In this document: piece after piece, positions 2,425-15,884 of the stretch | Numbering within the stretch: the stretch's first letter is position 1 | How the letters are laid out: each line of letters begins with the position of its first letter | Virus record (IMG/VR): IMGVR_UViG_3300025451_000030 | Span: 1 to 36,907 of that record | Origin: a virus | Lineage: Duplodnaviria > Caudoviricetes | DNA length: 36,907 bases | Strand: one strand, 5' to 3' | Made by a program: the position numbers and the translations under genes | The notes under the pieces: model-generated | The model's input: the letters and a program-made list of their open reading frames with translations, nothing else | What the model was told of the DNA's origin: nothing | Databases searched by the model: none

Positions 2425-2642
2425 AAACCGAAACGATCACCTGGCACGAACTGCCGGCCGACGGCATGCCCGACGCCGAAACCACTGTGCTGCTGGAACT
2501 GCGCGAGCTGGACGGTGACGGCACCAAGGTTCAGACCGGCTGGCTGGCCCAGTCGGGCTGGGTCGACATCAACGCATGGCCGATCGAGGCTGGCCGCGTC
2601 GTCGCCTGGGCTGACGTGCCTGGCGGGACCGCTGCAGCATGA
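2421..2642 (+). CDS. Small phage protein, DUF551-like
   Basis: ITWHELPADGMPDAETTVL...VVAWADVP pattern; ATGA overlaps on both sides. Confidence 0.6.
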   Translation: MKTETITWHELPADGMPDAETTVLLELRELDGDGTKVQTGWLAQSGWVDINAWPIEAGRVVAWADVPGGTAAA

Positions 2643-3082
2643 ACCACACAGAACTGATTGCGCGGTTGTCCGCCATGTGGGCACAGCTCGACCCTGTGGA
2701 CGAGTGGCGGCCAGTTATCCGCGATGCAATCGACGCGCTGACCCCGCCCGCTGCAGGGGTGCCGGTTGAGCGAATGCTCAGGCCTTTGGTTTGGGCACGG
2801 AAGGACCAACTGCAACATGCCAGCACGCGAGGCGGACTGATGTGCGCCATGTACCCGAACACCGACCGGCGCGCAGACCTGCAGCCGCTGTATGACCAAG
2901 CTGCGCTAGGCGCCGCGCTGAACCTGTGGCCGCGCGACTGCCGTTTGTGCGCGAACTTCACGACGCAGGCAGGAGGGTGCGTGTCCGTGGTTCAGTGCGT
3001 GGACAGCATGCAATTCACGGCGACCACGCCGCGCCAGTATTGGGCGTCGGCGCCTAACGGCCAGGCCCAACGGCTGCCGTAG
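2639..3082 (+). CDS. Hypothetical protein, apparently chimeric (internal attC remnant; ends inside attC1)
   Basis: PVERMLRP is encoded by the attC-arm remnant; CxxC...CxxxxxC in the C-terminal part. Confidence 0.6.
   Translation: MNHTELIARLSAMWAQLDPVDEWRPVIRDAIDALTPPAAGVPVERMLRPLVWARKDQLQHASTRGGLMCAMYPNTDRRADLQPLYDQAALGAALNLWPRDCRLCANFTTQAGGCVSVVQCVDSMQFTATTPRQYWASAPNGQAQRLP
2762..2783 (-). repeat. Degenerate half attC remnant inside ORF 2639-3082
   Basis: CCGGTTGAGCGAATGCTCAGGC matches the family-A right arm CCGGTTGAGCGAATGGTTAGGC at 20/22 positions; no left arm found. Confidence 0.65.
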
Positions 3083-3108
3083 GCAGTCCGTTGCAGCCGT
3101 TGTTGGGC
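3052..3108 (-). repeat. attC-like site 1 (57 bp)
   Basis: GCCTAAC...CAACGGCTGCC-GTA-GGCAGTCCGTTG...GTTGGGC hairpin. Confidence 0.8.
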
Positions 3109-3132
3109 GTTGGTTGCTGACGCTGAACTTTA

Positions 3133-3184
3133 CATTGTGGGCAGTACGAAAACACTAGACAAAGCGCATTTGTGGCAGTACATT
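3133..3184 (+). promoter_or_regulatory. Sigma70-like promoter with direct-repeat operator, copy 1
   Basis: TAGACA(3156-3161)-17 bp-TACATT(3179-3184); CATT(n4)GCAGTAC repeated at 3133 and 3167; AT-rich island. Confidence 0.7.
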
Positions 3185-3227
3185 AATACCACTGCAGCAA
3201 GACGCCGCAGCAACCCAGGAGAGCAAC

Positions 3228-3503
3228 ATGACCGCTACCAAGATCCAAATCGGCATCGACACCAGCATTGACACCACCGAAGACGGCTACGACGGCGGCG
3301 ACGCGGTGATGATCGAATCGCACAACGGCACCGTTTGCATCACTGGCCCGTTTGAGGGCTGGATGGGCTACCAAACGCTGGCTGACCTGCCGATTGAGCA
3401 GGCCGATGAAGCCGACGCCCTGGCCCGCAAGATTGCGGCCGACCCCGTTGCCGAACTCACGGCGCTGGGCTATGACTTGGCCGGCTGGTTCAAGCCGCTG
3501 TGA
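3228..3503 (+). CDS. Cassette gene, acidic hypothetical protein
   Basis: AGGAGA RBS; GTGA overlap with the RHH gene. Confidence 0.75.
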   Translation: MTATKIQIGIDTSIDTTEDGYDGGDAVMIESHNGTVCITGPFEGWMGYQTLADLPIEQADEADALARKIAADPVAELTALGYDLAGWFKPL

Positions 3504-3682
3504 ACCAAGCTCCGGGAAAGGCCAAGCCGGGGCGCAAGCCCCTGGCCGATGGCGATGGCAAGACCGCCCGTGTGCAACTGAAGCTGACGCCGGCCGCGAA
3601 AGCCGATTGGCTGGCGAAAGCCGCCGCTGCCGGTTTGACGCTGCAAGCCTGGGTGGAGTTGCGGTGCAGCGGGAAGCGGTGA
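3500..3682 (+). CDS. Ribbon-helix-helix-like DNA-binding protein, copy 1
   Basis: GRKP basic arm, RVQLKLT strand and two helices (AAAAGLTLQAWV); 56/60 identical to 9267-9449. Confidence 0.7.
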   Translation: MNQAPGKAKPGRKPLADGDGKTARVQLKLTPAAKADWLAKAAAAGLTLQAWVELRCSGKR

Positions 3683-3683
3683 C

Positions 3684-3784
3684 GCCCAACGTTGCCAATG
3701 AGGCGGGGCAAACGGCGCTGCCGCTGCCGGCTACACCCACAACCAGACCCGCCGTTTGACCTCGCCTCGATTGGCGGGTTAGGC
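3684..3784 (-). repeat. attC-like site 2 (101 bp, family B)
   Basis: GCCCAACGTTGCCAATGAGGCG...CGCCTCGATTGGCGGGTTAGGC; near copy at 7891-7989. Confidence 0.85.
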
Positions 3785-3807
3785 CCTGGTGAACGTAGAG
3801 GGAACAA

Positions 3808-4140
3808 ATGAACCGCATGGAGCAACTGCTGGCGTTCTGCGATTGGGAGCGGAAGCACAACCCGCACCCGGAAGGCAAGCCGCATGTGGCGGAGTGGGCT
3901 GCTGCTGAGATTGAACGGCTGAACGGAGAAGTTGCGCTGTTGCGCGCCACGATGGAAGGCGCCACCTACCAACTGAGCAAGGCGCGCATTTGGGGCGGCA
4001 TGGAGTGGCATTACAACCCGTTGCACCCAATGCACTACAGGCCGGCGCTTGATCGTCTGCGCGAAGTGCTGGACGGGCCTAACGCTGTAGCTCACCGGAC
4101 CCTGGAGGCGGAACGCCGCAAGGGGTCCGGTGCAGCGTAG
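3808..4140 (+). CDS. Cassette gene, hypothetical (AAAEIERL coiled-coil motif); reads through most of attC3
   Basis: GAGGG RBS; stop lies inside attC3. Confidence 0.7.
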   Translation: MNRMEQLLAFCDWERKHNPHPEGKPHVAEWAAAEIERLNGEVALLRATMEGATYQLSKARIWGGMEWHYNPLHPMHYRPALDRLREVLDGPNAVAHRTLEAERRKGSGAA

Positions 4141-4148
4141 TGTTAGCG
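4077..4148 (-). repeat. attC-like site 3 (72 bp)
   Basis: GCCTAACGCTGTAGCTCACCGGACCC...GGGGTCCGGTGCAGCGTAGTGTTAGCG. Confidence 0.8.
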
Positions 4149-4307
4149 GGCCGGTGGCTTAGCGCGCAGCAGCACCGCACGCGCCCACTCTAGGCCATGC
4201 TCATCGATCTTTGCCCACACCGCTGGAGGCATGCGGATAGACCGCTGCACCAGGCGCTTGGCTTCCGGGATGGGTGGGCGCCCGCCCTTGTTCTTTGGCT
4301 GTTCCAT
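4143..4307 (-). CDS. Small RHH/antitoxin-like regulator, probably leaderless
   Basis: MEQPKNKGGRPP...VQRSIRMPPAVWAKI; TATACT 6 nt upstream of the ATG; stop TAA lies in the attC3 core. Confidence 0.65.
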   Translation of the reverse strand: MEQPKNKGGRPPIPEAKRLVQRSIRMPPAVWAKIDEHGLEWARAVLLRAKPPAR

Positions 4308-4313
4308 GCGGGC

Positions 4314-4365
4314 AGTATACGTGATGCACAAACCGCTTGCGCTTGCTTTGTTTGTGTGATTCAAT
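4314..4365. promoter_or_regulatory. Divergent promoter region
   Basis: Minus strand: -10 TATACT (4314-4319). Plus strand: TTGCGC-17 bp-TTCAAT with extended TG. Confidence 0.45.
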
Positions 4366-4399
4366 AACACCCATCGACACACCAACCGGAGCAAGCAAC

Positions 4400-4603
4400 A
4401 TGCAAACCACCCACCTGCAAAACATTGGCAAAGTAGCCGCGAAGCCCGCCGAACAGATCAAGGCCGGCGACGTGCTGGTTTGGAACTTCGGCAGCACCAG
4501 CGAAGTGCTGGCTGTTGAGCGCACCGCCAAGACTGTTGTGGTGAAGCTGTCGGGCGGCTACAGCCGTCGCTTTGGCGCCTCCCGCCTGGTGGCGGTGCAA
4601 TGA
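4400..4603 (+). CDS. Cassette gene, small beta-rich (SH3-like) protein
   Basis: GGAG RBS; KPAEQIKAGDVLVWNFG. Confidence 0.7.
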   Translation: MQTTHLQNIGKVAAKPAEQIKAGDVLVWNFGSTSEVLAVERTAKTVVVKLSGGYSRRFGASRLVAVQ

Positions 4604-4818
4604 AGGCGCACCTGGTGAAGATTCAGCGGGTAGCGACCGCTGCCCGCGAATACGACGCGGTGACGGTGTATGTAGGTGATCTGCGCCTGCGCTGCGATGC
4701 TATTGACGACCGAACGATCAGGCTGGCACGAAGGCTGGCAGAGGATTGCGGTGCGACGTTCATGTACGACGAACACAACGCCGAGCGAGTGCGGGCGGCT
4801 TGCGCGATTGCCGGCTAA
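4600..4818 (+). CDS. Cassette gene, hypothetical
   Basis: ATGA overlap; stop TAA is in the attC4 core. Confidence 0.65.
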   Translation: MKAHLVKIQRVATAAREYDAVTVYVGDLRLRCDAIDDRTIRLARRLAEDCGATFMYDEHNAERVRAACAIAG

Positions 4819-4886
4819 CGTTGGAGCTAAGGCGCCGACGTAGGGCCGCAGGCCCGTAGGAGGTCGCCTTGAGCGACCAGTTAGGC
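4813..4886 (-). repeat. attC-like site 4 (74 bp)
   Basis: GGCTAACGTTGGAGCTAAGGCG...CGCCTTGAGCGACCAGTTAGGC. Confidence 0.85.
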
Positions 4887-4906
4887 ATCAACGTGGAGAA
4901 ACAAGC

Positions 4907-5233
4907 ATGGAAGAGTGGGAAGAAGTCGATATACCGACACACCGGCTGAAAGATGCGAAGTGGGTTGCCACCGTGGCCGAGATTCGCAACAACGCCACGG
5001 GCGTGGTTCGCGAGTACCAGGACAACTCCATCATGGAAGACGGCGCGCCCGAGCCGAGCTCTTTCATGTGGGAAGACGGCAACTACGCCTGCGACTGCAA
5101 CCGCAAACTGTTTTTTGCTAGAGCGGCTGGCGAGGATGAGGATTGGGAAAGCGAATGCAGCGATGGCCTCTACTCCGTTCGCGTGCGGAACAAGAAAAGT
5201 GGCCGCGTGTTCTACAGCGAATTTGATGCCTAA
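4907..5233 (+). CDS. Cassette gene, hypothetical (WEDGNYACDCNR motif)
   Basis: GGAG RBS; stop TAA is in the attC5 core. Confidence 0.8.
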   Translation: MEEWEEVDIPTHRLKDAKWVATVAEIRNNATGVVREYQDNSIMEDGAPEPSSFMWEDGNYACDCNRKLFFARAAGEDEDWESECSDGLYSVRVRNKKSGRVFYSEFDA

Positions 5234-5296
5234 CGTGGCCGGTAACCGGCCTGGCCCGGCTTGCCGGGACAGGTCCGGTTGACCCGCCAGTTAGCC
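5228..5296 (-). repeat. attC-like site 5 (69 bp, family E)
   Basis: GCCTAACGTGGCCGGTAACCGG...CCGGTTGACCCGCCAGTTAGCC; unpaired G and T fall on the plus strand. Confidence 0.85.
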
Positions 5297-5339
5297 GGCA
5301 CTGGTGAAACGCCGGCACCTGCCTGAAAGGGCTGATACC

Positions 5340-5702
5340 TTGAACCAAGAGCAGATTGCCCGAGTGGCACACGAAGTGAACCGCGCCTATTGCCAGGCGC
5401 TGGGCGACCACAGCCAGCCAGCATGGGAAGACGCGCCGCAGTGGCAGCGCGACAGCGCCATGCTGGGCGTGAAGCTGCACACCGAAAACCCCGGCGCCAG
5501 CCCTTCCGCCAGCCATGAAAGCTGGATGGCGCAGAAGGTGGCCGAAGGCTGGGTCTACGGCCCCGAGAAGAAGCCAGAGCTGAAGCAGCACCACTGCATC
5601 GTGCCGTTTGACGCGCTGCCGGTGGCGCAGCAGGCGAAGGACTACATATTTCGCGGCGTGGTGCATGCCCTGGCGCACGCGCCGGCCACAGTTGCCGCAT
5701 AG
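5340..5702 (+). CDS. Cassette gene, RyR-domain phage protein
   Basis: IARVAHEVNRAYC...HESWMAQKVAEGWVYGPEK...HHCIVPFDALP...KD fits the RyR repeat signature; TTG start after GAAAGGG (GTG 5304 is an alternative). Confidence 0.8.
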   Translation: MNQEQIARVAHEVNRAYCQALGDHSQPAWEDAPQWQRDSAMLGVKLHTENPGASPSASHESWMAQKVAEGWVYGPEKKPELKQHHCIVPFDALPVAQQAKDYIFRGVVHALAHAPATVAA

Positions 5703-5737
5703 GTGCGCAGATGCCGGGCATGCAGGTATTGGTGTCC

Positions 5738-5837
5738 GGCTAACGTTCGAGCTAAGCAGGAGACAACGGCGTGACCATGCTGGACGAAGCCACAGAAGCG
5801 AGCGCCGTTGGCTCTCTGCTTGAGCGAGGAGTTATGC
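5738..5837 (-). repeat. attC-like site 6 (100 bp, family C); contains the RBS and GTG start of the downstream gene
   Basis: GGCTAACGTTCGAGCTAAGCAGGAGACAACGGC-GTG...GCCGTTGGCTCTCTGCTTGAGCGAGGAGTTATGC. Confidence 0.85.
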
Positions 5838-6631
5838 GCCCGGTGGAGTGCTTACGGACCGTGGCGGCCCTCTATGTTGAGCCGAAGGGCTGCTATGTGG
5901 GCGTGCCGGGTGTTGATGCTTGGGACGAAGCCCGCGATGCCCGCACCTACAACGGCCCGCACCCGGTGGTAGCGCACCCGCCCTGCCAGCGATGGGGCAG
6001 GTTCTGGCACGGCAGCACACGCAAACCGCATCAGTACAAGCTGGGCGACGATGGCGGGTGTTTTGCTGCTGCCCTGGCCGCGCTGCGCCTGAATGGCGGC
6101 GCGCTTGAGCACCCGATGGACTCGCATGCGTGGAAGTATTTCAGGCTGAAGAAGCCGCCGCGCAAAGGTGGGTGGGTTGAGGCCGCGCCAGGCTTGTGGA
6201 CATGCTGCGTGTACCAGGGCCACTACGGGCACCTTGCCGGCAAAGGAACATGGCTGCTTGTGGCTGGCGTGCCAAAGCGCCTGCTTCCCGAACTGCGCTG
6301 GGGCAAGACACCGCAGCGGCTGCACCCTCGCGCCGTGGAGTTGCACGGCTACGAGAAAGCGCGGCGCATTGGAATGATGGCGATGGTGGGCGGCAATGAC
6401 AAAACTGCGATTCGCAACGGCACGCCGCCTGAGTTCCGAGACTTGCTGATTGAGATTGCGCGCAGCGCAGTGAACCCGGTGGAGCAAGGTGCCGCCGCGC
6501 TGGCCCTGTTGAAGCGCATCCGCTACCACGCGCAGCGGCACGCGCTGCCGCGAGACTGGCTGACGGCAGCAGACGAGGTTTTAGGCACTTGGCATGCGGT
6601 GAAACTCACCCATTCCGAGATAGGCGCATAA
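5771..6631 (+). CDS. Cassette gene, DNA cytosine methyltransferase-like phage protein
   Basis: VVAHPPCQRW (motif IV PC-like) and LEHP (motif VI ENV-like); first ~22 codons lie in attC6; stop is in the attC7 core. Confidence 0.6.
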   Translation: MTMLDEATEASAVGSLLERGVMRPVECLRTVAALYVEPKGCYVGVPGVDAWDEARDARTYNGPHPVVAHPPCQRWGRFWHGSTRKPHQYKLGDDGGCFAAALAALRLNGGALEHPMDSHAWKYFRLKKPPRKGGWVEAAPGLWTCCVYQGHYGHLAGKGTWLLVAGVPKRLLPELRWGKTPQRLHPRAVELHGYEKARRIGMMAMVGGNDKTAIRNGTPPEFRDLLIEIARSAVNPVEQGAAALALLKRIRYHAQRHALPRDWLTAADEVLGTWHAVKLTHSEIGA

Positions 6632-6725
6632 CGCCAGGTTAAGCGGGAGACAACAGCCGTGACCAAGTATGAAGACGCGCAAGTGGTGGCCGCTGTTGGC
6701 TCTCCGCTTGAACCGACAGTTAGCC
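6626..6725 (-). repeat. attC-like site 7 (100 bp, family C); contains the RBS and GTG start of the downstream gene
   Basis: GCATAACGCCAGGTTAAGCGGGAGACAACAGCC-GTG...GCTGTTGGCTCTCCGCTTGAACCGACAGTTAGCC. Confidence 0.85.
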
Positions 6726-7489
6726 GTCATGCCGCGCCGCGCGTGATAGCGCAGTTTTCCTGCGGCGCTGCCTCGGCGGTGGCTACCAAGATGGCGCTGG
6801 CCCAGTACAAGGGCGCAGAGGTGGTGATTGCCAATGCGTTTTTGGTGGAAGAGGATGAAGACAACCGCCGCTTCTTGGCCGACTGCGAAGACTGGTTCGG
6901 TCAGCGCGCCCTGCAACTGCGGGATGAGAAGTACGGGGCCAGCGCCGACGAGGTGTGGCGGCGCAAGCGGTTCATGAAGGGGCGCAAGGGTGCGCCGTGC
7001 TCTGGCGAACTGAAGCGCAAGGTGCTGGACAAGGTGAAACGCCCCGACGATGTGCTGATATTTGGCTTCACCGCCGAAGAAGCAGACCGCTTCGATGACT
7101 TCCAAGAGCGCAACCCGCAACTGAAAGCCACTGCGCCGCTGGTGGAGAACGGGATTGGGAAGGCCGACTGTCTTGCGATGGTGCAGCGGGCCAGCATCAA
7201 GCTGCCGCTAGCCTACCGCCAGGGCTACAGCAACGCGAACTGCACCGGCTGCCCCAAGGGCGGCGAGGGCTACTGGAACCACGTTCGCAAGGTTCACCCG
7301 CTGGTGTTCCGTGCGCGCCTGGAGCGGCAGGAATCCATCGGCCCAGGCGCGTACTTCTTCCGCGACCGCGACACCGAAGAACGCTTCGGGTTGAAGGACT
7401 TGGACCCGAAGGCGGGCCGCCACGATGAACCGATGCCAGCGTGCAGTTTCTTCTGCGAGCTGGGCGAACAAGAGTACGCCGCCTCATGA
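6659..7489 (+). CDS. Cassette gene, PAPS-reductase-like (adenine nucleotide alpha-hydrolase) protein with Cys cluster
   Basis: FSCGAASAVA PP-loop variant, GAPC, NANCTGCPKGGEGYW, terminal CSFFC; first ~22 codons lie in attC7. Confidence 0.7.
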   Translation: MTKYEDAQVVAAVGSPLEPTVSRHAAPRVIAQFSCGAASAVATKMALAQYKGAEVVIANAFLVEEDEDNRRFLADCEDWFGQRALQLRDEKYGASADEVWRRKRFMKGRKGAPCSGELKRKVLDKVKRPDDVLIFGFTAEEADRFDDFQERNPQLKATAPLVENGIGKADCLAMVQRASIKLPLAYRQGYSNANCTGCPKGGEGYWNHVRKVHPLVFRARLERQESIGPGAYFFRDRDTEERFGLKDLDPKAGRHDEPMPACSFFCELGEQEYAAS

Positions 7490-7490
7490 C

Positions 7491-7590
7491 GGCTAACGTT
7501 TGAGCTAACCGGAAAACCCGGCAGCTACAGAAGATGATAGGCGCCACGGTGCCGCCTGCCGGGGTTTTCCGGTTGAGCGAATGGTTAGGC
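7491..7590 (-). repeat. attC-like site 8 (100 bp, family A)
   Basis: GGCTAACGTTTGAGCTAACCGGAAAACCCGGCAGC...GCCTGCCGGGGTTTTCCGGTTGAGCGAATGGTTAGGC. Confidence 0.9.
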
Positions 7591-7618
7591 CACGCATTGG
7601 TGGCAAGTGAGGAACGAC

Positions 7619-7882
7619 ATGAGAAGCACACTGTTGGCTGCAACCGCGTTGTCGGTGATGGCTGGTATGGGAGCGATTTCGCAGTCAATGCCTGCACCGC
7701 GCAAGGACAGCAACCGCGACTACAGGGACGCAGACATTGAGCGCGCCTTCGCTCGAAACGAGCGCCCGGCACCAGGCCCCGAAGAAGTGAAGCGTGCGGC
7801 GGTGCGCGCCGAGATTGCAGCGCACAACGCCGAAGTCGAGCGCCGCAAGGCCGAGAAGCGCGCTCGCAGGCTGACCCGCTGA
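7619..7882 (+). CDS. Cassette gene, hypothetical (hydrophobic N-terminus, basic coiled-coil C-terminus)
   Basis: GAGGA RBS; fills the cassette. Confidence 0.65.
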   Translation: MRSTLLAATALSVMAGMGAISQSMPAPRKDSNRDYRDADIERAFARNERPAPGPEEVKRAAVRAEIAAHNAEVERRKAEKRARRLTR

Positions 7883-7890
7883 ATTGCGGG

Positions 7891-7989
7891 GCCTAACGTT
7901 GCCGATGAGGCGGGGCAAACGGCCGCGCCGTGATGGCAGATGAACAAACCGCCCCGCCGTTTGACCTCGCCTCGATTGGCGGGTTAGGC
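7891..7989 (-). repeat. attC-like site 9 (99 bp, family B)
   Basis: Arms nearly identical to site 2, different loop. Confidence 0.85.
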
Positions 7990-8016
7990 GTGGCGAACGA
8001 AGCGAAAGGACATGGA

Positions 8017-8226
8017 ATGACTGAATGGACCAAGCCGGAATACAGGGTTGTGCGCGACAACTACAACGGCTATGAGGTGCAGATTCGGCGCTGGTGGCAT
8101 TGGCCGTTTTGGTGGCAAGCGGCTGGGAGCAACACCCACTCAAGCGTGGAAGCCGCAGAGACGTTTGCGGAGGGGCACGCACGCGCACGCGGCCCCGTGA
8201 AGCATCTCGGGAGGCTGGGCGCCTAA
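8017..8226 (+). CDS. Cassette gene, Trp-rich hypothetical (alternative in-frame start inside attC9 at 7930/7933)
   Basis: AAAGGA RBS; stop is in the attC10 core. Confidence 0.7.
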   Translation: MTEWTKPEYRVVRDNYNGYEVQIRRWWHWPFWWQAAGSNTHSSVEAAETFAEGHARARGPVKHLGRLGA

Positions 8227-8320
8227 CGTTTGAGCTAACCGGAAAACCCGGCAGCTACAGAAGATGGAAGGCACCACGGTGCCGCCTGCCGGGGTTTTCC
8301 GGTTGAGCGAATGGTTAGGC
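8221..8320 (-). repeat. attC-like site 10 (100 bp, family A)
   Basis: Minus strand reads R'' GCCTAAC, 5-bp CATTC, L'' GCTCAACC ... L' GGTTAGC, 6-bp TCAAAC, R' GTTAGGC, the canonical attC layout. Confidence 0.9.
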
Positions 8321-8342
8321 CTGGTGGCCGAAGGGGAAGACG

Positions 8343-8516
8343 ATGGAATTTGCTATGGGGATTTTGATTGGGTTTCTGCTGATGATGCTCTTGATTGGCA
8401 TTGCCGTCTGGGGAATGCACATGGGCCTTGAACTTGCTGTGGACGGCACAAAGAAGAAAGGCCACTTCTGCGCCTATGGCAAAAAGTGGAAAGTTGTTGA
8501 GACACCCGAGGCCTAG
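8343..8516 (+). CDS. Cassette gene, 57-aa membrane protein (not in ORF track)
   Basis: MEFAMGILIGFLLMMLLIGIAVWGMH...ETPEA*; GAAGGGGAAG RBS; lower GC. Confidence 0.7.
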   Translation: MEFAMGILIGFLLMMLLIGIAVWGMHMGLELAVDGTKKKGHFCAYGKKWKVVETPEA

Positions 8517-8518
8517 GG

Positions 8519-8618
8519 GCCTAACGTTTGAGCTAACCGGAAAACCCGGCAGCTACCGAATATGCAAGGCGCCACGGTGCCGCCTGCCGGGGTTTTCCGG
8601 TTGAGCGAATGGTTAGGC
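8519..8618 (-). repeat. attC-like site 11 (100 bp, family A)
   Basis: Arms identical to site 10, loop variant. Confidence 0.9.
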
Positions 8619-8641
8619 CTGGCGGCCGAAGGGGAAGAACG

Positions 8642-8830
8642 ATGACAAGCTGGATTCTGGTACTCACGATTTTGACCAGCGGCCACGGCGCAGCACTGAC
8701 AAACGTGCCCGGCTTCACGGCGCAGCAAGACTGCGCGGCAGCAGCAGCCGAGTGGCTCCGCGCAATGAACGCCCAGCCCGGAGGCTTCCGCTACTACAGC
8801 GCAATCTGTCTGCCGCAGAAGAGGGCCTAA
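8642..8830 (+). CDS. Cassette gene, small secreted/membrane protein with Cys pair
   Basis: MTSWILVLTIL...GFTAQQDCAAAA...AICLP; stop is in the attC12 core. Confidence 0.7.
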   Translation: MTSWILVLTILTSGHGAALTNVPGFTAQQDCAAAAAEWLRAMNAQPGGFRYYSAICLPQKRA

Positions 8831-8893
8831 CGTTGCCGGTAACCGGATTGACCCGGCTTGCCGGGGCAATTCCGGTTGAGCGGCGTGTTGGGC
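8825..8893 (-). repeat. attC-like site 12 (69 bp, family E)
   Basis: GCCTAACGTTGCCGGTAACCGG...CCCGGCTTGCCGGG...CCGGTTGAGCGGCGTGTTGGGC; same loop as site 5. Confidence 0.85.
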
Positions 8894-8918
8894 GTTGTTG
8901 CCGGAGCGCGTGTCTTTA

Positions 8919-8970
8919 CATTGGTGGCAGTACGAAAACACTAGACAAGGCGCATTGTTGGCAGTACATT
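8919..8970 (+). promoter_or_regulatory. Sigma70-like promoter with direct-repeat operator, copy 2
   Basis: TAGACA(8942-8947)-17 bp-TACATT(8965-8970); same GGCAGTAC repeats as 3133-3184. Confidence 0.7.
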
Positions 8971-9015
8971 AACACCACTGCAGCAAGTCGCCGCAGCAAC
9001 CCACAGGAGAGCAAC

Positions 9016-9270
9016 ATGACAGAAGTTCAAGCCCTGCAAGCCGAAGCCACCCGCCAAGATGCGATTGCTCAGGCCCTGCGCGCCGATGTGCAAACCGCAG
9101 AAGCTGCCGCCGCCGCGATCACGGACCAAGATTCGACCGAAGCAGGCATTGCCTGGGCGCGTGCGGGCGGATTGCGCCACGCAATGGACGAAGCCATCGA
9201 AGCCATGCGCAAGGCTCACCGCGATGCAGCTGACATCGAAGACCCGGACGGCCTGCGGGCGGAAGCATGA
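9016..9270 (+). CDS. Cassette gene, Ala-rich helical hypothetical
   Basis: AGGAGA RBS; ATGA overlap with the RHH gene. Confidence 0.7.
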   Translation: MTEVQALQAEATRQDAIAQALRADVQTAEAAAAAITDQDSTEAGIAWARAGGLRHAMDEAIEAMRKAHRDAADIEDPDGLRAEA

Positions 9271-9449
9271 ACCAAGCCCCGGAGAAAGCCAAGCCGGGGC
9301 GCAAGCCCCTGGCCGATGGCGAGGGCAAGACGGCCCGCGTGCAACTGAAGCTCACGCCGGCCGACAAAGCCGATTGGCTGGCAAAGGCAGCCGCTGCCGG
9401 TTTGACGCTGCAGGCGTGGGTAGAGAAGCGGTGCAGCGGTAAGCGATGA
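9267..9449 (+). CDS. Ribbon-helix-helix-like DNA-binding protein, copy 2
   Basis: Paralog of 3500-3682. Confidence 0.7.
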   Translation: MNQAPEKAKPGRKPLADGEGKTARVQLKLTPADKADWLAKAAAAGLTLQAWVEKRCSGKR

Positions 9450-9450
9450 C

Positions 9451-9469
9451 GCCCAACTAGTCGATATGC
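9451..9469 (-). other. attI-like simple site (lone core plus degenerate L box) terminating array 1
   Basis: Minus strand GCATATC-GACTA-GTTGGGC = 7-bp degenerate L box, 5-bp spacer, GTTRRRY, with no attC hairpin. Same geometry as the attI1 simple site. Confidence 0.55.
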
Positions 9470-9849
9470 CAACTTTCCAAACTCCGAACCGATGGCGCCG
9501 CTACAACGCCACACCAGGCGCACACCAGCGCCGGCAGCGTGCGCGGGAAGCCGCCAGCATTGCAGGCCCCGCGCCGGCCTACCCGCCGACCGCCCCACTG
9601 CATGGCGACTGGCTGGGCGGCTGCATCAACGGACAGACCGTGATCGTGCGGCTGATGCGCGATCCGTCGCACAGGTCAGACCAATGGGCCGCCGAGATCG
9701 ACGGCGGAACGGTGGCCGATGCTGCTGGCTTGACGCGGCTGTGGGCGCTGCTGCATCCGCGCTGGGGCAAGGCGCCGAGCAAGCGGGCATTGGCGACGAT
9801 GCAAGAACGCTGGACCGACCGAGACGAACACGACGCCGCAATGGCGTGA
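9466..9849 (+). CDS. Hypothetical phage protein; its start overlaps the attI-like site
   Basis: ORF fills the gap to the next RBS; no clear RBS of its own. Confidence 0.5.
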   Translation: MPTFQTPNRWRRYNATPGAHQRRQRAREAASIAGPAPAYPPTAPLHGDWLGGCINGQTVIVRLMRDPSHRSDQWAAEIDGGTVADAAGLTRLWALLHPRWGKAPSKRALATMQERWTDRDEHDAAMA

Positions 9850-9856
9850 GGACACC

Positions 9857-10444
9857 ATGAGCAACACTGACGAACTTTGCGCCGCTGCACAACAGGCCCT
9901 GGTGGCAATGGAGAAGTACCCGGTCACGGTGAATCACTGGAAAGCGGTGCTGCTGCCTGCCGCTGATGCACTGCGCGCCGCCCTGGCGCAGCAGCCCGCC
10001 GCCCCTGACCGCTGGAATGAGGGGTTCAAGCACGGCCAGTGGCTGGCGAAGCACTCCGCCCCTGTTGTGGAGCGCGCAGACTCTGCAACGCCTGTTGTGG
10101 AGCGTAGCGCCGGGAATGTGAGCGACAACGCCGCCCCTGTGGCGCCTGCCCGCTGGTACTGCGTGACCAACTACGGAGGCGCCACGCTGTGCACTGGCCG
10201 CGACGATGCCGCCGAGGTGGCGGCCGAGCAGGACATCGCCATTCCGCGCCATGGGCCGCACCGGGCCGTGATGCTGGCAGAAGTGCCGCCTGCGCGAGTG
10301 CCGCTGACCGAGGCGGAGATTGCGTCAATGCAGCGCAAAGCAAACACAACCGGCGTTCAGTTTTTACAGTCGTCAACCGTGCGATGGATCGTTCGCGCCA
10401 TCGAAGCCGCCCACGGCATCACGGCGCAAGGAGAACTGAAGTGA
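9857..10444 (+). CDS. Mosaic hypothetical phage protein (ALRAALAQ... PLTEAEI... RAIEAAHGI motifs)
   Basis: GAGGA RBS; motifs typical of betaproteobacterial phage early-region proteins; internal PVVER duplication. Confidence 0.7.
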   Translation: MSNTDELCAAAQQALVAMEKYPVTVNHWKAVLLPAADALRAALAQQPAAPDRWNEGFKHGQWLAKHSAPVVERADSATPVVERSAGNVSDNAAPVAPARWYCVTNYGGATLCTGRDDAAEVAAEQDIAIPRHGPHRAVMLAEVPPARVPLTEAEIASMQRKANTTGVQFLQSSTVRWIVRAIEAAHGITAQGELK

Positions 10445-10728
10445 CCGACGCACTGCACATTGCTGACGGCTACTCAGCCCGCCCCTACGGTGACGGCTAC
10501 ATCATCCACCACGAAAGCGGAGGCGCCTGGGCGGCTGATCTGGCGATGGTTGCCGCCGTGCTGGAGATTGCCCGCCTGCGCGCAGCCGACGACGCCCACC
10601 GTGCCGCATTTGCAGCGATCTACACCGCGCTGCAACCGGCTGACCCCGACCGCGCCACATGGCCGGCTGAGATTGCCCGCCTGCGCGCCATGCTGGCCGC
10701 CGTCATTGTTGGGAACCGGACATCATGA
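10441..10728 (+). CDS. Hypothetical phage protein with duplicated EIARLRA
   Basis: AGGAG RBS, GTGA overlap. Confidence 0.6.
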   Translation: MTDALHIADGYSARPYGDGYIIHHESGGAWAADLAMVAAVLEIARLRAADDAHRAAFAAIYTALQPADPDRATWPAEIARLRAMLAAVIVGNRTS

Positions 10729-10865
10729 GCACCCTGCTGGAGGTTCTGGGCCTGGTGCTGCTGATCCTGCTGGTGGTCGCCCTGTGGTTCGTGTTCCGAG
10801 GCGACCCGAGCCTGATCGATCTGTGGCACCGGGCCGCGATGCAGGCCGCTGGAGGTGTGCGGTGA
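10725..10865 (+). CDS. 46-aa membrane protein (not in ORF track)
   Basis: MSTLLEVLGLVLLILLVVALWFVF...; ATGA and GTGA overlaps. Confidence 0.6.
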   Translation: MSTLLEVLGLVLLILLVVALWFVFRGDPSLIDLWHRAAMQAAGGVR

Positions 10866-11089
10866 AGGTCAGGATGATCAAGCGGCGCCACGACCGGCGC
10901 ACCACCTTCAAGGCGCTGCTGTGGGCCGGCATGAACGACGAAATGCGCTGGCACACGCTGGAGTACGACGGCGATGACCCATGGGACGACGACATGCCCG
11001 GCGACGCATGCCTGCACTGCCACGGCGACGGCATGGACCCGGACTGCGACTACCTGTTGCAGTGCCCGGACTGCGGCGGGAGTTGGTGA
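10862..11089 (+). CDS. Small protein with DnaJ-like CxxCxGxG zinc finger
   Basis: CLHCHGDG...CPDCGG; GGAGG RBS. Confidence 0.6.
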   Translation: MKVRMIKRRHDRRTTFKALLWAGMNDEMRWHTLEYDGDDPWDDDMPGDACLHCHGDGMDPDCDYLLQCPDCGGSW

Positions 11090-11307
11090 TGGCGGCAGTA
11101 ACGCTGCATTTCCGAGCCGACCGCCTGCACAAGACCTGCGGCGTGTGCGGGGCGGATCTGAACCGGCGCGTCAGCCGCTGGTGGCTGACGAACTGCTGGA
11201 CGGCCGACCCGAAGGAATACCGCGCGCAGCAGAGCTGCCACCCGGCAGAGACTGTGCGGCCCTGCGGAGTACTGGACCGCAGCAAGACGCCCAACCGACG
11301 GAGATAA
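11089..11307 (+). CDS. Small Cys-rich protein; ends inside attC13
   Basis: TGATG coupling; CGVCG. Confidence 0.55.
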   Translation: MAAVTLHFRADRLHKTCGVCGADLNRRVSRWWLTNCWTADPKEYRAQQSCHPAETVRPCGVLDRSKTPNRRR

Positions 11308-11359
11308 GCCGCCGGCCGCCGGCCGCCTGCGGGCGGTCGGCTTGATCGACCTGTTCGGC
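11289..11359 (-). repeat. attC-like site 13 (71 bp)
   Basis: GCCCAACCGACGGAGATAAGCCG...CGGCTTGATCGACCTGTTCGGC. Confidence 0.75.
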
Positions 11360-11386
11360 CTCTGGCGCCGAAGCGAAAGGACTGTG

Positions 11387-11578
11387 ATGAGCCTGAACTA
11401 CCGAGAGACTGACGACGAGTGCCCCGGTTGCGGAGCGACTGCCCGCGGCAGGCGAGACAACAAGCCGAACTCTCCGCAGGGGTTGAGCGAGTGCCCGCAA
11501 TGCGGCGCAGAGAAATGCTGCATGTGTGACATGGGCGATGACGTGGAATGCGCCTCGTGCGACCTAGGCGACGAGTAG
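11387..11578 (+). CDS. Cassette gene, Cys-rich zinc-finger protein
   Basis: CPGC, CPQC, CCMC, CASC; AAAGGA RBS. Confidence 0.7.
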   Translation: MSLNYRETDDECPGCGATARGRRDNKPNSPQGLSECPQCGAEKCCMCDMGDDVECASCDLGDE

Positions 11579-11579
11579 G

Positions 11580-11631
11580 GCCTAACGTCATGCTAGCCGG
11601 CGCGTAGCGTCCGGCTGAGCTGGGGTTGGGC
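11580..11631 (-). repeat. attC-like site 14 (52 bp, very short)
   Basis: GCCTAACGTCATGCTAGCCGGCGC-GTA-GCGTCCGGCTGAGCTGGGGTTGGGC. Confidence 0.75.
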
Positions 11632-11656
11632 GGCTGTGCGACGAAGCGAAGGACGA

Positions 11657-11881
11657 ATGATGAGCATGGACTACATCCGCCGCACCTACGGTGTGCCGGC
11701 CAAACGCGGGATGACCGTCACCATCTGCGGCGACGGAACGCGCTTCCAGGCGCGCATCGTCGGGTCTCGCGGGCAGTACCTGCGGCTATGGATTCCAGGC
11801 GGCAAGCGCTCGCACCTGTACCACCCGACCGATTCGCTGGAGTACCCGGCCGCAGCAAAGGGCAAGACGCCCAACGGCTGA
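11657..11881 (+). CDS. Cassette gene, small phage protein (YIRRTYGVPAKRG...YHPT family)
   Basis: AAGGA RBS; ends PNG* inside attC15. Confidence 0.75.
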   Translation: MMSMDYIRRTYGVPAKRGMTVTICGDGTRFQARIVGSRGQYLRLWIPGGKRSHLYHPTDSLEYPAAAKGKTPNG

Positions 11882-11935
11882 ACTCACCGGACGGCCCGGC
11901 CTGCCGGGCAGGTCCGGTGCAGTGACGTGTTGGGC
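11869..11935 (-). repeat. attC-like site 15 (67 bp, family D arms)
   Basis: GCCCAACGGCTGAACTCACCGG...CCGGTGCAGTGACGTGTTGGGC. Confidence 0.85.
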
Positions 11936-11964
11936 GGCTGGTTGATTGACGAACAGGAACAAGC

Positions 11965-12207
11965 ATGCTGAAACCTGAACACCTAGACGGCGCACTGCGG
12001 CAAGAACAGATGCAGGAGCGGGCGGATTGGAGAGCCGCCAACGAACCCGGCAGCGCGTCAGCTTCTCCATGGGAGCGCGGGCGCCTGGATGCGCTTGCCG
12101 GCAAAGCGGCGCCCGACCTTGTGCGCCCGGACGGCGCGTGGTCGGCACGGCTGTACGCGGCGGGGTGGGATCGCGGGGCGGAGCGGCGCAAGACGACCAA
12201 CGTTTGA
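11965..12207 (+). CDS. Cassette gene, hypothetical (WERGRLDA...AAGWDRG, Rmf/CrpP-like pattern)
   Basis: AGGA RBS; ends TNV* inside attC16. Confidence 0.6.
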   Translation: MLKPEHLDGALRQEQMQERADWRAANEPGSASASPWERGRLDALAGKAAPDLVRPDGAWSARLYAAGWDRGAERRKTTNV

Positions 12208-12293
12208 GCTAACCGGACCGGCCAGGCGCCGGGATGGTGACAGATGAACAGGACGGACCGCCTGGCTGGGTCCGGTTGAGCGAATGGTTAGGC
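12195..12293 (-). repeat. attC-like site 16 (99 bp; family-A outer arms, family-D inner stem)
   Basis: GACCAACGTTTGAGCTAACCGGACCGGCCAGGCG...CGCCTGGCTGGGTCCGGTTGAGCGAATGGTTAGGC. Confidence 0.88.
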
Positions 12294-12550
12294 CCGGCTC
12301 AGAAGCGCGCCAAGAATTGACCGCTGCCCTGGACAAAAGCGGCAGTGTGGTGCTGATAGACGTGGATGGCGAAATCCTGTTTTACGCGGCAGACGGCAAG
12401 ATGAAGGTGCAGCGGCTGGGCCAGGAGTGCGAGGGTTGCATTGCTGCGAATATGAAGCTGGCCGATGCTGTGGCGCAGGCATGGAACGCGAAACTCAAGC
12501 GCGCCGCTGACCCAACGAACAGCCGCCCGCGCTGTGGTCTTGGGGCCTAA
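12284..12550 (+). CDS. Cassette gene, hypothetical; ATG lies in the attC16 arm
   Basis: Fills the cassette; stop is in the attC17 core; start uncertain. Confidence 0.55.
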   Translation: MVRPGSEARQELTAALDKSGSVVLIDVDGEILFYAADGKMKVQRLGQECEGCIAANMKLADAVAQAWNAKLKRAADPTNSRPRCGLGA

Positions 12551-12645
12551 CGCTTGAAGTGAGGCGCCTTTGACGGCGCGAAGAAAGGACGACGATGAAC
12601 CAACATGACACGCCGGCAAAGGTCGCCTCGACTGATGGGTTAGGC
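12545..12645 (-). repeat. attC-like site 17 (101 bp); RBS and ATG of the downstream gene lie in its loop
   Basis: GCCTAACGCTTGAAGTGAGGCGCCTTTGACGGCG...AAAGGACGACGATG...CGCCGGCAAAGGTCGCCTCGACTGATGGGTTAGGC. Confidence 0.85.
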
Positions 12646-12963
12646 CCGCTGGTTGCTGACGCGCTGACAGCCGCAGACGAATACGCGGAAGCAGCCGGCC
12701 ACGCCGAGTGCTGGACGGGCACGCGCGCCAGCTACAACCAGCACCTAGCCGATGCGCGCACCAAGGCGCGCCAGGCCATTGATGCGGCCGTGGCCGCAGA
12801 GCGCGGGCGGTGGGAAGCCTTGCTTGAAGATCGCGCCCAGATTCATGGCGAGTCGTCGCGCATCTATGCGCGCCTAGCGAGCGCTGTGCGCGCCGGGGCC
12901 GGTGACATTGTTTTGGGGCAACTGCTTCGCGCCGAGGTGCAGGGAAGAGGGCCTAACGGCTGA
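12595..12963 (+). CDS. Cassette gene, hypothetical; starts in the attC17 loop and ends in attC18
   Basis: AAAGGA RBS plus ATG inside the hairpin loop. Confidence 0.7.
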   Translation: MNQHDTPAKVASTDGLGPLVADALTAADEYAEAAGHAECWTGTRASYNQHLADARTKARQAIDAAVAAERGRWEALLEDRAQIHGESSRIYARLASAVRAGAGDIVLGQLLRAEVQGRGPNG

Positions 12964-13048
12964 ACTCACCGGACCGGCCAGGCGCCGGGGTGGTGACAAA
13001 CGCGGACCCGCCCCGCCTGGCTGGGTCCGGTGCAGTGATGGGTTAGGC
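12951..13048 (-). repeat. attC-like site 18 (98 bp, family D)
   Basis: GCCTAACGGCTGAACTCACCGGACCGGCCAGGCG...CGCCTGGCTGGGTCCGGTGCAGTGATGGGTTAGGC. Confidence 0.88.
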
Positions 13049-13071
13049 CTGGTGGCCGAAGGGGAAGAACG

Positions 13072-13263
13072 ATGGACATGCGACAGACGCTGCCGGAACT
13101 GTGGCGCAGTCACGATGGCTTGTGGTGGATTGGGCAGGCCGTGGCGTTGATGCTGGCCCTGTCGCTTCTGTTCAACGGCTACGGCGGCCCCGTTGCTGCG
13201 GCTGTTGGCTACGCGCTGGCAGTGCTGGTTGACATCCGCGAGGCGGTGTCGAAGCGGGCCTAA
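13072..13263 (+). CDS. Cassette gene, 2-TM membrane protein
   Basis: Two hydrophobic segments; stop is in the attC19 core. Confidence 0.7.
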   Translation: MDMRQTLPELWRSHDGLWWIGQAVALMLALSLLFNGYGGPVAAAVGYALAVLVDIREAVSKRA

Positions 13264-13321
13264 CGGCTGAACTCACCGGACCGGCCGGCCTGCCGGCTGG
13301 GTCCGGTGCAGTGGGTTAGGC
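13258..13321 (-). repeat. attC-like site 19 (64 bp, family D; 3-bp spacer deletion)
   Basis: Right arm CCGGTGCAGTGGGTTAGGC versus CCGGTGCAGTGATGGGTTAGGC in site 18. Confidence 0.8.
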
Positions 13322-13344
13322 GTGGTGAACGAAGGGGAAGAACG

Positions 13345-13548
13345 ATGCAATGCAAGAACTGCGGCAAGGCCGCCGACCAGCACAACGCCAAAACTCGGGC
13401 ATGCCCCGGCGGCCGGAAGCACCGGACGCACGGTTACCCGTGGTTCCACCAGACGCAGGTTTTTGAAGCGCACAAGCAGTGCCCCAACAAGCGTGGCGGT
13501 GTGTGCGGCAAGGCTGGCCCGTGCTTGAGCCCAGCATGTGGTGGCTGA
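13345..13548 (+). CDS. Cassette gene, Cys/His-rich small protein
   Basis: CKNCG..H..CP..; GAAGGGGAAG RBS. Confidence 0.65.
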   Translation: MQCKNCGKAADQHNAKTRACPGGRKHRTHGYPWFHQTQVFEAHKQCPNKRGGVCGKAGPCLSPACGG

Positions 13549-13549
13549 C

Positions 13550-13648
13550 GCCTAACGTTTGAGCTAACCGGAAAACCCGGCAGCTACCGAATTGAGAAGC
13601 GCTGCGGCGCGGCCTGCCGGGGTTTTCCGGTTGAGCGAATGGTTAGGG
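13550..13648 (-). repeat. attC-like site 20 (99 bp, family A)
   Basis: Arms as in sites 8/10/11; ends GTTAGGG. Confidence 0.88.
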
Positions 13649-13667
13649 CTGTTGTTGGAGAAACGTG

Positions 13668-13766
13668 ATGAACAAGCGCTTCGTGCGCTGGGCCGGCCTC
13701 AAACACCCGGCCACGCTGGGCGGCGATGTCGTCGAGCGCTGGCTAGGGCCCCGATCTATTGCCTGA
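13668..13766 (+). CDS. 32-aa ORF in the last, possibly truncated cassette
   Basis: GGAG RBS; MNKRFVRWAGLKHP...SIA*. Confidence 0.35.
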   Translation: MNKRFVRWAGLKHPATLGGDVVERWLGPRSIA

Positions 13767-13797
13767 CAACACCTTGCAGCGGCACCACCCTGCCCGC

Positions 13798-14070
13798 TCA
13801 TTCAGGCTCGGCCTGCAGCCCTGCTGGCACGCCGTGCCGCCACCTGGCTGCAGACAGGGTCAACCACACCAGCACCGCAAGCACCAGCACCGTCTTGCCA
13901 GCCATCGCCGGCAGCACCAGGCTGAAGCTGAGCCCCGCGAACATCACCAGGTGCTGCATGCGCACTGGCGCCGGCGTGGCCCGCGTCATCTTGGCAGCGC
14001 GGCAAATGATGGAGAACATGGCCATGATGGTGGCCACAGCCTGGGTGATCAACAACAGGTCAGCATTCAT
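13798..14070 (-). CDS. Membrane protein, putative holin-associated
   Basis: 3 hydrophobic segments; ATGA overlap with the upstream holin-like gene. Confidence 0.65.
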   Translation of the reverse strand: MNADLLLITQAVATIMAMFSIICRAAKMTRATPAPVRMQHLVMFAGLSFSLVLPAMAGKTVLVLAVLVWLTLSAARWRHGVPAGLQAEPE

Positions 14071-15105: not shown

Positions 15106-15177
15106 GCTTGCTCCTTAAACTTGGGCCGTCATCTTGAGGGTGGACTTGAAATGTCGCCTGCCGGGCAACAATGGCGC

Positions 15178-15882
15178 ATGAAAGCTATCAACCTGCCCGG
15201 AGTCCTTGTCGCCGCCATCATGACCGCTTGCGGTGGTGGTGGTGGTGGAGACCTGCAAAACACGCAGGCTGCGGCTTGCGTCCCAAAAATGCCGGTGCGG
15301 CTGTTGATGTTTGGGGATTCGACGTTCAGCGGCACCGGAGCATCCCAGGATTTGAACGGAAACCTGACATACGCTCCAGCGCCAATCATCCAGCGTGCAA
15401 TGGACCTGCAGTTCGGAGCTGGCGCTGTGCAGGTGCTCAATTACTCGGTGATGGGCAGCTCCAGCGCTGATTTGGTGGCGGGTATCGATGGCGTCAATGC
15501 ACCGTGGCCCACGCCGGCGTTGGGTGGAGACATCGCCATCATCAACCATGGGATCAACGACCAGTTGCGCCAAACGCCCATTGCGGCATACCGGGCGAAC
15601 CTTGCGGCCTTTACCGCAGTAGGCATTCCCGTGGTGCTGCAGACGCCAAACCCCACGTTTCGCGGCTGGGAAAGCGTCGCCCACATTCAGGCTGTGCGGG
15701 ACACCGCGGCAGCTGCTGGCCGCACGCTGGCCGACGTGCACGGGTACATGAGTGGTCTCGCCAACGCTGCGCAATACTTCCCCGACGGAGTGCACCCGAA
15801 CGACGCCGGGTATCAGCTGATCGTCAACAACGTGACGCTGCCGGCCTTGGTGCCCCTGGTCGCTAAGCTGCGCTGCCAGTGA
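15178..15882 (+). CDS. SGNH/GDSL hydrolase lipoprotein (antisense moron)
   Basis: Lipobox MTA-C followed by poly-G; blocks FGDS, G, GIND and DGVHP. Confidence 0.88.
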   Translation: MKAINLPGVLVAAIMTACGGGGGGDLQNTQAAACVPKMPVRLLMFGDSTFSGTGASQDLNGNLTYAPAPIIQRAMDLQFGAGAVQVLNYSVMGSSSADLVAGIDGVNAPWPTPALGGDIAIINHGINDQLRQTPIAAYRANLAAFTAVGIPVVLQTPNPTFRGWESVAHIQAVRDTAAAAGRTLADVHGYMSGLANAAQYFPDGVHPNDAGYQLIVNNVTLPALVPLVAKLRCQ

Positions 15883-15884
15883 AT

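Follow-up and report, generated by a model that had tools for sequence, protein, structure and literature searches.

Introduction

Integrons are generally seen as a bacterial device. In the current study, we describe a tailed-phage fragment (Duplodnaviria; Caudoviricetes; IMG/VR virus record IMGVR_UViG_3300025451_000030, positions 1 to 36,907; hereafter the window, meaning the whole 36.9-kb stretch that was analysed) carrying two arrays of small genes separated by integron-type recombination sites (attC), in which the sites are inverted relative to the genes, together with a putative attI-like docking site. The reading that we favour, with a probability of roughly 0.7, is that of a mirror-image integron-type array, whose units have the form C-[attC hairpin]-leader-gene-RYYYAA, are likely moved by the integron integrase (IntI) of the host, and enter at 9451-9469.

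The closest described systems are the integrons themselves. In the available part of PMC5027507, their attC sites are built from R and L boxes with spacers and carry extrahelical G and T bases 6 bp apart, crossover takes place on the bottom strand, between the A and C of the R' AAC, cores are complementary across a cassette, and a two-box docking site stands at one end of the array; each of these features has its counterpart here. Unlike the integrons described there, the phage locus has its genes on the bottom strand, an attC that heads its gene and may hold the start codon, and an orphan gene in the place of intI, which was not found. Transcription would also run towards the docking site, so that the newest cassette would come last rather than first.

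Clusters of attC sites lacking an integron integrase (CALINs) have also been reported from phage genomes (PMC9892861), and these likewise combine attC clusters and small genes with the absence of intI. As far as the available text of that paper goes, the arrays of phages TJE1 and PH101 are called typical and divergent sites are noted in one phage, whereas the inversion described here is systematic; in the same text, neither systematic inversion nor start codons within sites are reported, nor is a phage attI lacking intI. Seventeen CALINs are counted there among 10,705 genomes; in the present work, three search patterns made from window sites returned partly overlapping sets of 21, 116, and 66 viral stretches. 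A further relative is the attG secondary site, a GWT in foreign DNA at which IntI inserts attC cassettes (bioRxiv 10.1101/2022.09.11.507474, available part). By analogy, insertion of this type is a possible origin of the phage arrays, array 2 included; unlike a one-off secondary site, 9451-9469 has two boxes conserved across diverged phages and appears to have been reused many times. The inverted layout is not described in the available portions of PMC8876359, PMC8618304, or the attG preprint, and a search of the open-access literature, subscription journals being outside its scope, returned no paper on systematic inversion or on a phage attI without intI. Phage attC clusters are already published; the inversion and the docking site were not found in the open-access literature.

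Strand and anatomy of the attC sites

Sites were located with a custom orientation-aware scanner (R''-N5-L''(8 nt, bulge)-variable terminal structure-L'(7)-N6-R', following the layout in the available part of PMC5027507) that was checked on bacterial loci. Its first version, applied to the whole window, gave 15 matches, every one of them with its top strand on minus, while the second, applied to 3000-13700, gave 16 strict sites, again with 16/16 top strands on minus, at a chance level of one match in 20 Markov shuffles. A relaxed setting added a single plus-strand match (15569-15663), the relaxed chance level being 0-3 per shuffle. Four further sites (3052, 6626, 11289, and 13258) were picked by eye and have plus-strand folding z-scores of -2.3 to -5.2, bringing the total to 20 attC sites across 10.6 kb; for the 7 of these 20 that were folded, plus-strand hairpins are predicted with z between -2.3 and -5.7. 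The sites are imperfect inverted repeats of the order R''-L''-L'-R', with conserved AAC/GTT and spacers of 5-6 nt, and their plus-strand spacing (7-6-7...8-5-7) is that of the aadA7 bottom-strand primer (supplement of PMC9892861, available part).

The first extrahelical base on plus is G in 12 of the 16 strict window sites (C in 3 and T in 1), and T stands 6 bp further in at 15/16. Both bases are conserved alike in viral sites (G 363/434, T 373/434) and bacterial sites (G 204/254, T 203/254). An earlier note on this DNA, made from the letters alone, had claimed that the sites are inverted relative to their genes, that the unpaired G and T fall on the plus strand, and that one cassette open reading frame (ORF) lies off that strand; all three statements held up, the only plausible minus-strand gene being 4143-4307, which has no family match. 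The top-strand reading quoted in that note corresponds to sites 8221-8320 and 8519-8618.

A single scanner and a single gene caller were then applied to viral and bacterial loci alike, the latter being 123 stretches that one of the search patterns used for the viral stretches picked out of roughly a tenth of the genome collection. Site-gene pairs in the window comprise 29 with the gene opposite to the top strand and 2 with it on the same strand. Unique pairs in the first 137 viral loci divide 428 to 11 in the same sense, and those in the 123 bacterial loci 37 to 173, the canonical arrangement. A ribosome-binding site (RBS) and ATG within 45 nt after the site are found at viral sites on the bottom strand in 246/441 cases and on the top strand in 10/441, and at bacterial sites on the top strand in 50/244 and on the bottom strand in 11/244. 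The hairpin itself contains an RBS and a start codon, in frame with the downstream gene, at 65/441 viral sites, and three window genes (5771, 6659, and 12595) are predicted to start inside an attC. PHROGs or Pfam matches were obtained for seven plus-strand array ORFs and PHROGs matches for 0/32 minus-strand ORFs, and in six pairs of homologous bottom-strand ORFs third-position changes number 233 vs 90 and 68 at the other positions. The inversion of the attC sites relative to the coding strand is real.

A few viral contigs with wholly canonical arrays also exist (L023/L036/L037/L087/L088, L302, and L309); these were considered as mixed arrays and rejected as such, since they look wholly host-type instead. 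The features of the two arrays are as follows (coordinates, strand of the top strand for sites or of the gene for genes, and description).

2762..2783, minus: eroded right arm of an attC (a relic) inside ORF 2639-3082; repeat family D7, the L434 homologue being intact there
3052..3108, minus: degenerate attC, picked by eye; hairpin z -3.1; L434 homology stops at 3058
3156..3184, plus: sigma-70-like promoter match in a cassette, duplicated at 8942-8970
3228..3503, plus: cassette gene with no assigned function (gene calling)
3500..3682, plus: small NikA-like gene (ribbon-helix-helix type); PF21983 E 0.004, below cut-off; paralogue of 9267-9449
3684..3784, minus: attC (both scanner versions)
3808..4140, plus: cassette gene running into the next site (gene calling)
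4077..4148, minus: attC (both scanner versions)
4143..4307, minus: 54-aa ORF, divergent from 4400 and in the same cassette; plausible top-strand gene, no family match
4400..4818, plus: two cassette genes, 4400-4603 and 4600-4818 (gene calling)
4813..4886, minus: attC (both scanner versions)
4907..5233, plus: cassette gene with its stop TAA within the next core (gene calling)
5228..5296, minus: attC (scan and fold)
5340..5702, plus: RyR-domain phage protein (PF02026 E 1.6e-9; phrog_5154)
5738..5837, minus: attC containing the next gene's predicted RBS and start codon (scan)
5771..6631, plus: cassette gene, phrog_12600 (PHROGs), predicted to start within the attC
6626..6725, minus: attC containing the next gene's predicted RBS and start codon (by eye, fold)
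6659..7489, plus: PAPS-reductase-like gene (phrog_424 E 7.6e-41; PADLOC SspD E 2.7e-6), predicted to start within the attC
7491..7590, minus: attC (scan)
7619..7882, plus: cassette gene (gene calling)
7891..7989, minus: attC (scan)
8017..8226, plus: cassette gene, phrog_8363 (PHROGs)
8221..8320, minus: attC (scan; fold z -5.7)
8343..8516, plus: cassette gene (gene calling)
8519..8618, minus: attC (scan)
8642..8830, plus: cassette gene (gene calling, family search)
8825..8893, minus: attC of the cassette adjoining the docking site (scan)
8942..8970, plus: sigma-70-like promoter match in a cassette, weak
9016..9449, plus: gene of no assigned function followed by a NikA-like gene, 9267-9449 (gene calling)
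9451..9469, minus: putative attI-like docking site with core, 5-nt spacer, and inverted second box; predicted crossover 9456/9457 (locus comparison)
9466..9849, plus: conserved 127-aa orphan gene at the intI-equivalent place; no recombinase in any test run
11289..11359, minus: attC, first of array 2 (by eye, fold)
11387..11578, plus: cassette gene, phrog_5584 (PHROGs)
11580..11631, minus: attC (second scanner version)
11657..11881, plus: cassette gene (gene calling)
11869..11935, minus: attC (scan and fold)
11965..12207, plus: cassette gene (gene calling)
12195..12293, minus: attC (scan)
12284..12550, plus: cassette gene, start uncertain (gene calling)
12545..12645, minus: attC with predicted RBS and ATG of the next gene (scan)
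12595..12963, plus: cassette gene (gene calling), predicted to start within the attC
12951..13048, minus: attC (scan)
13072..13263, plus: cassette gene (gene calling)
13258..13321, minus: attC with shortened spacer (by eye; fold z -5.2)
13345..13548, plus: cassette gene, phrog_10623 (PHROGs)
13550..13648, minus: last attC (scan), with a 32-aa ORF behind it (13668-13766) that has no matching end core

The mobile unit and its crossover point

The left core of a site is the exact complement of the right core of the previous site at 16/19 window junctions and differs by one mismatch at the other 3; the exact matches include rare core pairs, for example around 5771-6631, and left cores match the right core of their own site at 7/20 window sites only. 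Across viral arrays, matches to the previous site stand to matches within the site as 98 to 15, with 17 ties. As far as sequence comparison goes, core matching across junctions shows movement of the cassette type, not its direction.

Direction was assessed from pairs among 430 viral sites that have one flanking gene only in common. When this was the upstream gene (16 pairs), 14 had the same left core, none agreed over the 13 nt that follow AAC, and 3 had the same right core; when it was the downstream gene (49 pairs), the corresponding counts were 12, 14, and 34, the baseline in random pairs being 102/500, 4/500, and 88/500. Non-modal left cores were kept in 9/11 upstream-gene pairs vs 1/38 downstream-gene pairs, and, counted as independent clusters, hairpin bodies were at least 80% identical in 10/17 cases of downstream-gene sharing and 1/16 of upstream-gene sharing. 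Alignments between loci break at AA^C on the sense strand, between unrelated hairpins (e.g., L089/L113, L093/L354, and L033/L101), and two different phages carry an identical 428-bp unit that extends from a left core as far as the following AAC. In four other studies, contig pieces start at AAC (4081, 9455, and 12549) or end 0-3 nt after it, the single window cassettes 4081-4820 and 12549-12958 having 100% identical pieces in run X2, and two contig joints (11292 to 11584 and 12198 to 12549) remove exactly a predicted unit. Cassette 4081-4820 also reaches very high depth in one wastewater run.

A mobile unit of the form C-[attC]-gene-RYYYAA is supported by these comparisons, with the left core apparently travelling with the upstream gene and the hairpin and right core with the downstream gene. 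This unit, and a crossover on the sense strand, had been proposed in the earlier note, which named co-segregation of the attC with the upstream gene in comparative genomics as evidence against it, and the behaviour of the hairpin bodies and the AA^C breakpoints agree with the proposal. The opposite allocation, in which the attC belongs to the upstream gene and the minus strand is recombined, is exceedingly improbable: low-frequency top-strand recombination is reported for some sites (PMC5027507, available part), and a single site in L094 (5998-6057) faces against its inverted array, but upstream-gene pairs kept neither the 13 nt after AAC (0/16) nor, with one exception in 16, the hairpin body, and the RBS and start codons inside 65/441 viral sites run into the downstream gene.

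A different objection is that the hairpins are repeated boundaries between which genes are exchanged by homologous recombination rather than by a site-specific process. Near-identical site copies do recur in the window (7491, 8221, 8519, and 13550), contig pieces branch at the right end of sites as well, and hairpin bodies have been replaced while the gene stayed, falling below 80% identity in 31/49 downstream-gene pairs; hairpin interiors must therefore also be replaced in some other way. In loci L040 (2664-2730) and L360 (2911-2968), for example, the downstream gene is 99% identical and the inner attC stem has been replaced in both arms with pairing kept, which suggests, from the sequences, a second process exchanging hairpin interiors. 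Homologous recombination as the main route is nevertheless very unlikely, given breaks at AA^C between unrelated hairpins, rare cores that match across each cassette, and at least 23 cassette ends that meet the docking site with the core alone in common. Disfavoured by the docking-site data, it may act alongside site-specific movement.

The docking site and the gene behind it

Array 1 ends in a core, five bases, and an inverted second box that overlaps the ATG of the 127-aa gene (9451-9469). Forty-three loci of this gene were compared, leaving out L403 (which has the window's length and coordinates) and L391 and L427 (cut inside the gene); the 43 include L402, which is 99.98% identical to the window and not independent of it. 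The motif AAC-N5-RWTATG is present in 39/43. A strict pattern places the docking site in 28/43 loci, with 23 distinct upstream ends, and inspection of the other 15 by eye gave 11 with the site, 3 with an altered second box, and 1 without it. Identity to the window begins at 9443-9452, even in contigs whose copy of the gene is 94-99% identical. An upstream attC was detected in 16 loci; in 13 of these its right core is an exact match to the docking core, and in the other 3 there is one mismatch. Most of the matched docking cores are the modal core, but rare cores that match are found in the window, L382, and L384. The docking site has been met by at least 23 different cassette ends, and the core is all that they have in common with it. 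On these comparisons, 9451-9469 is an attI-like docking site with a polymorphic upstream side.

The identification of 9457 as the point of cassette entry in the earlier note is in keeping with these data. Entry at the promoter-distal end, which it also claimed, follows from the geometry, with the qualification that two cassettes have promoter-like sites of their own. The core said to stand alone at the end of array 1 is present, though not alone, being half of the conserved two-box site. Array 1 does not start with a full attC at 3052, as had been stated: 2762-3057 is an eroded cassette, and its counterpart in L434, site included, is intact. An eroded cassette at the upstream end fits ageing away from the docking site. 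A reading of 3052 and 9457 as the halves of a single empty site was dropped, the DNA left of 3052 being itself a cassette. No minus-strand promoter match of the Pc type was found near 9457, and the genes face the docking site.

The 127-aa gene (9466-9849) sits where intI lies in a bacterial integron. Its candidacy as a recombinase or intI remnant was rejected: the 120 homologues listed have no precomputed Pfam domain, the best atlas score is 0.76, there is no PDB sequence match, the structure model (predicted local distance difference test 73, predicted template-modelling score 0.38) has no fold match at E 0.001 or better, and none of 37 profile hits makes it a recombinase.

Over 10.6 kb the locus has 20 sites, and the 36.9-kb record (about 50% complete) yielded no integrase. 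No intI lies beside the docking site, no Pc promoter reading into the array was detected, and the genes are not arranged as in a canonical cassette, where the top strand carries the ORF and the attC of that ORF lies downstream of it. The array works like an integron and qualifies as a CALIN; it is neither a set of canonical cassettes nor a complete integron.

Proposed mechanism and the recombinase

In the mirror-image reading, with the enzymatic steps carried over from known IntI chemistry, the folded bottom strand, here the sense strand, would be cut between A and C of AAC in R'. A reaction of attC with attC would excise a circle, and a reaction of attC with attI would put that circle beside 9457. 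The chemistry would be ordinary, with only the gene turned round inside its cassette. The newest cassette would stand last in the early operon and older cassettes would erode at the upstream end, and the hairpin could carry the RBS and start codon of its gene.

IntI (TIGR02249) was found above cut-off in 0/50 viral records and in 33/44 bacterial genomes with the same site pattern, and host IntI is therefore the likely, and simplest, enzyme on present sequence evidence. Some phage sites are 92-100% identical to bacterial sites, and IntI1 recombines five phage-borne attC sites with attI1, through the bottom strand more than the top (PMC9892861, available part).

The same unit and crossover might instead be served by a tyrosine recombinase other than IntI, such as a short Xer-like enzyme encoded in the missing half of the genome or by a helper phage. 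The tyrosine recombinase family PF00589 has no match in the 36.9-kb record, which is about half complete, and is present in 9/37 array-bearing records and in 2/5 records with the docking site; one protein, P0121, even joins the docking-site gene to a PF00589 C-terminal part. Yet 18/24 records at least 90% complete have no PF00589 match, among them G016, which carries the docking site, and G460 and G461, also with the docking site, have none either. A phage recombinase common to these arrays was not found, no protein family occurring in more than 4/11 array-bearing phages (618 proteins, genomes to 40 kb). The sites also keep the G and T bulges of the IntI type and resemble those of intI-bearing bacteria. 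P0121, a lone example from a 1.1-kb contig, is probably a deletion fusion, since an ordinary integrase lies two genes downstream in G007. We consider an enzyme of this kind unlikely.

Several observations weigh against the mirror-image array moved by host IntI. Every locus was chosen with patterns from the window's own site family. The longest ORF per viral cassette, tried as a model-free test of strand, was uninformative and does not separate the strands (bottom 88 vs top 81; short genes in GC-rich viral DNA), so that the coding strand rests on the codon model, RBS, family matches, and the six homologous pairs. The replacement of hairpin bodies noted above belongs here as well, and the two clean contig joints both have a short side of 25-26 letters, below the caution line of 30. 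When cores upstream of 10 bacterial intI genes were compared by eye with the docking site, no resemblance was seen. For array 2, which the close relative L381 lacks altogether, a docking site was not recognised, and the recombinase could lie in the half of the genome that the window, about 50% complete, does not hold. The 127-aa gene occurs in 0/361 genomes of one bacterial family, which leaves no lysogen to examine for intI. Lastly, a search for phage-type cassette genes in the 123 bacterial loci gave only 3 weak tblastn matches (394 proteins), and at most one candidate host-type cassette was seen in an inverted array (L059); with almost no mixing of the pools, exchange between phage and host is unsupported. 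The L059 candidate is a 224-aa top-strand ORF at 6068-6742, possibly a captured host cassette.

Possible reasons for the inversion

Replication, through the strand that it leaves single-stranded, was suggested in the earlier note as what may set the orientation, and it offers one approach to the polarity, as a bottom strand on the lagging-strand template folds and recombines more (PMC8946536, available part). Phages G016 and L018 have sites on both genome strands, each antisense to the genes around it, so it is the gene that polarity tracks rather than a single fixed displaced strand. Bidirectional replication co-directional with transcription is a possible explanation; GC skew, used to locate the replication strand, mostly tracks the gene strand and cannot decide.

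Insulation offers another. A cassette facing the promoter is not expressed (PMC5027507, available part), and host arrays include many anti-phage cassettes (bioRxiv 10.1101/2024.07.02.601686, available part). A canonical host cassette inserted at the docking site would be antisense to the phage transcript and hence silent, and a phage cassette behind a host Pc promoter would likewise be silent. One idea, by analogy, is that cassettes of either pool would be silenced by their opposite polarity when placed in an array of the other.

The joins between sites and genes bear on how cassettes arise. Four stretches of the window (8321-8345, 8619-8644, 13049-13074, and 13322-13347) have a common leader, which stops precisely at the ATG although the genes that follow are unrelated, and in 21 pairs among 244 viral sites the leader is alike up to the ATG and diverges within about 3 bases; upstream genes end with TAA inside the core in 128/319 cases. 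Shared leaders ending at ATG may mark how cassettes are built. Taking these strands together, we offer, tentatively and as somewhat less probable than not, the broader proposal that phages of integron-bearing bacteria run a shared mirror-image pool on host IntI with an attI of their own, that polarity insulates the pools and keeps captured anti-phage cassettes silent, and that new cassettes are made from a reusable attC-plus-RBS leader and a gene joined at its ATG.

Genome setting and neighbouring features

The window is a fragment of a tailed-phage genome, with small genes on plus from 1 to 13.6 kb; the minus strand encodes terminase, portal, protease, capsid, and tail proteins between roughly 17.3 and 36.2 kb (PHROGs/Pfam). 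The first and last cassettes of array 1 (3128-3690 and 8914-9457) have a promoter-like region and a NikA-like gene in common, with different genes between; promoter-like matches are weak in general, with 3 in 15 kb vs 1.5 in shuffles. Divergent 54-aa ORFs similar to 4143-4307 occur in L064 and L343. A PADLOC search for defence functions among 19 proteins gave one weak match only.

Between the arrays, 9857-11307 holds several small genes without detected sites, in mosaic pieces common to L406, L410, and L427, which are possibly eroded cassettes. Behind array 2, 13649-13800 holds the 32-aa ORF of the last cassette and adjoins convergent minus-strand genes. Positions 15121-17306 and 28806-30302 take in a lower-GC region behind the tail fibre, where the plus strand has a GDSL-lipase-like ORF, and a pair of long ORFs on minus (473 and 498 aa) without family match. 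Isolated phages (the 'phages' collection) gave gene-level matches only, and the 'plasmids' collection a single 23-nt match, at chance level.

Implications

Unrelated phages have the same sites, but their genes point the other way and a dedicated docking site has been reused heavily; gene polarity is thus not fixed by attC chemistry. How cassettes are made is, to our knowledge, an open question, and the sharp joins at ATG and stop codons provide a way into it. If host IntI does the work, phages would be using an adaptation enzyme of the host to shuffle their early accessory genes, which would constitute a precise, site-specific route to phage mosaicism and would make available a large pool of small early genes for counter-defence screening.

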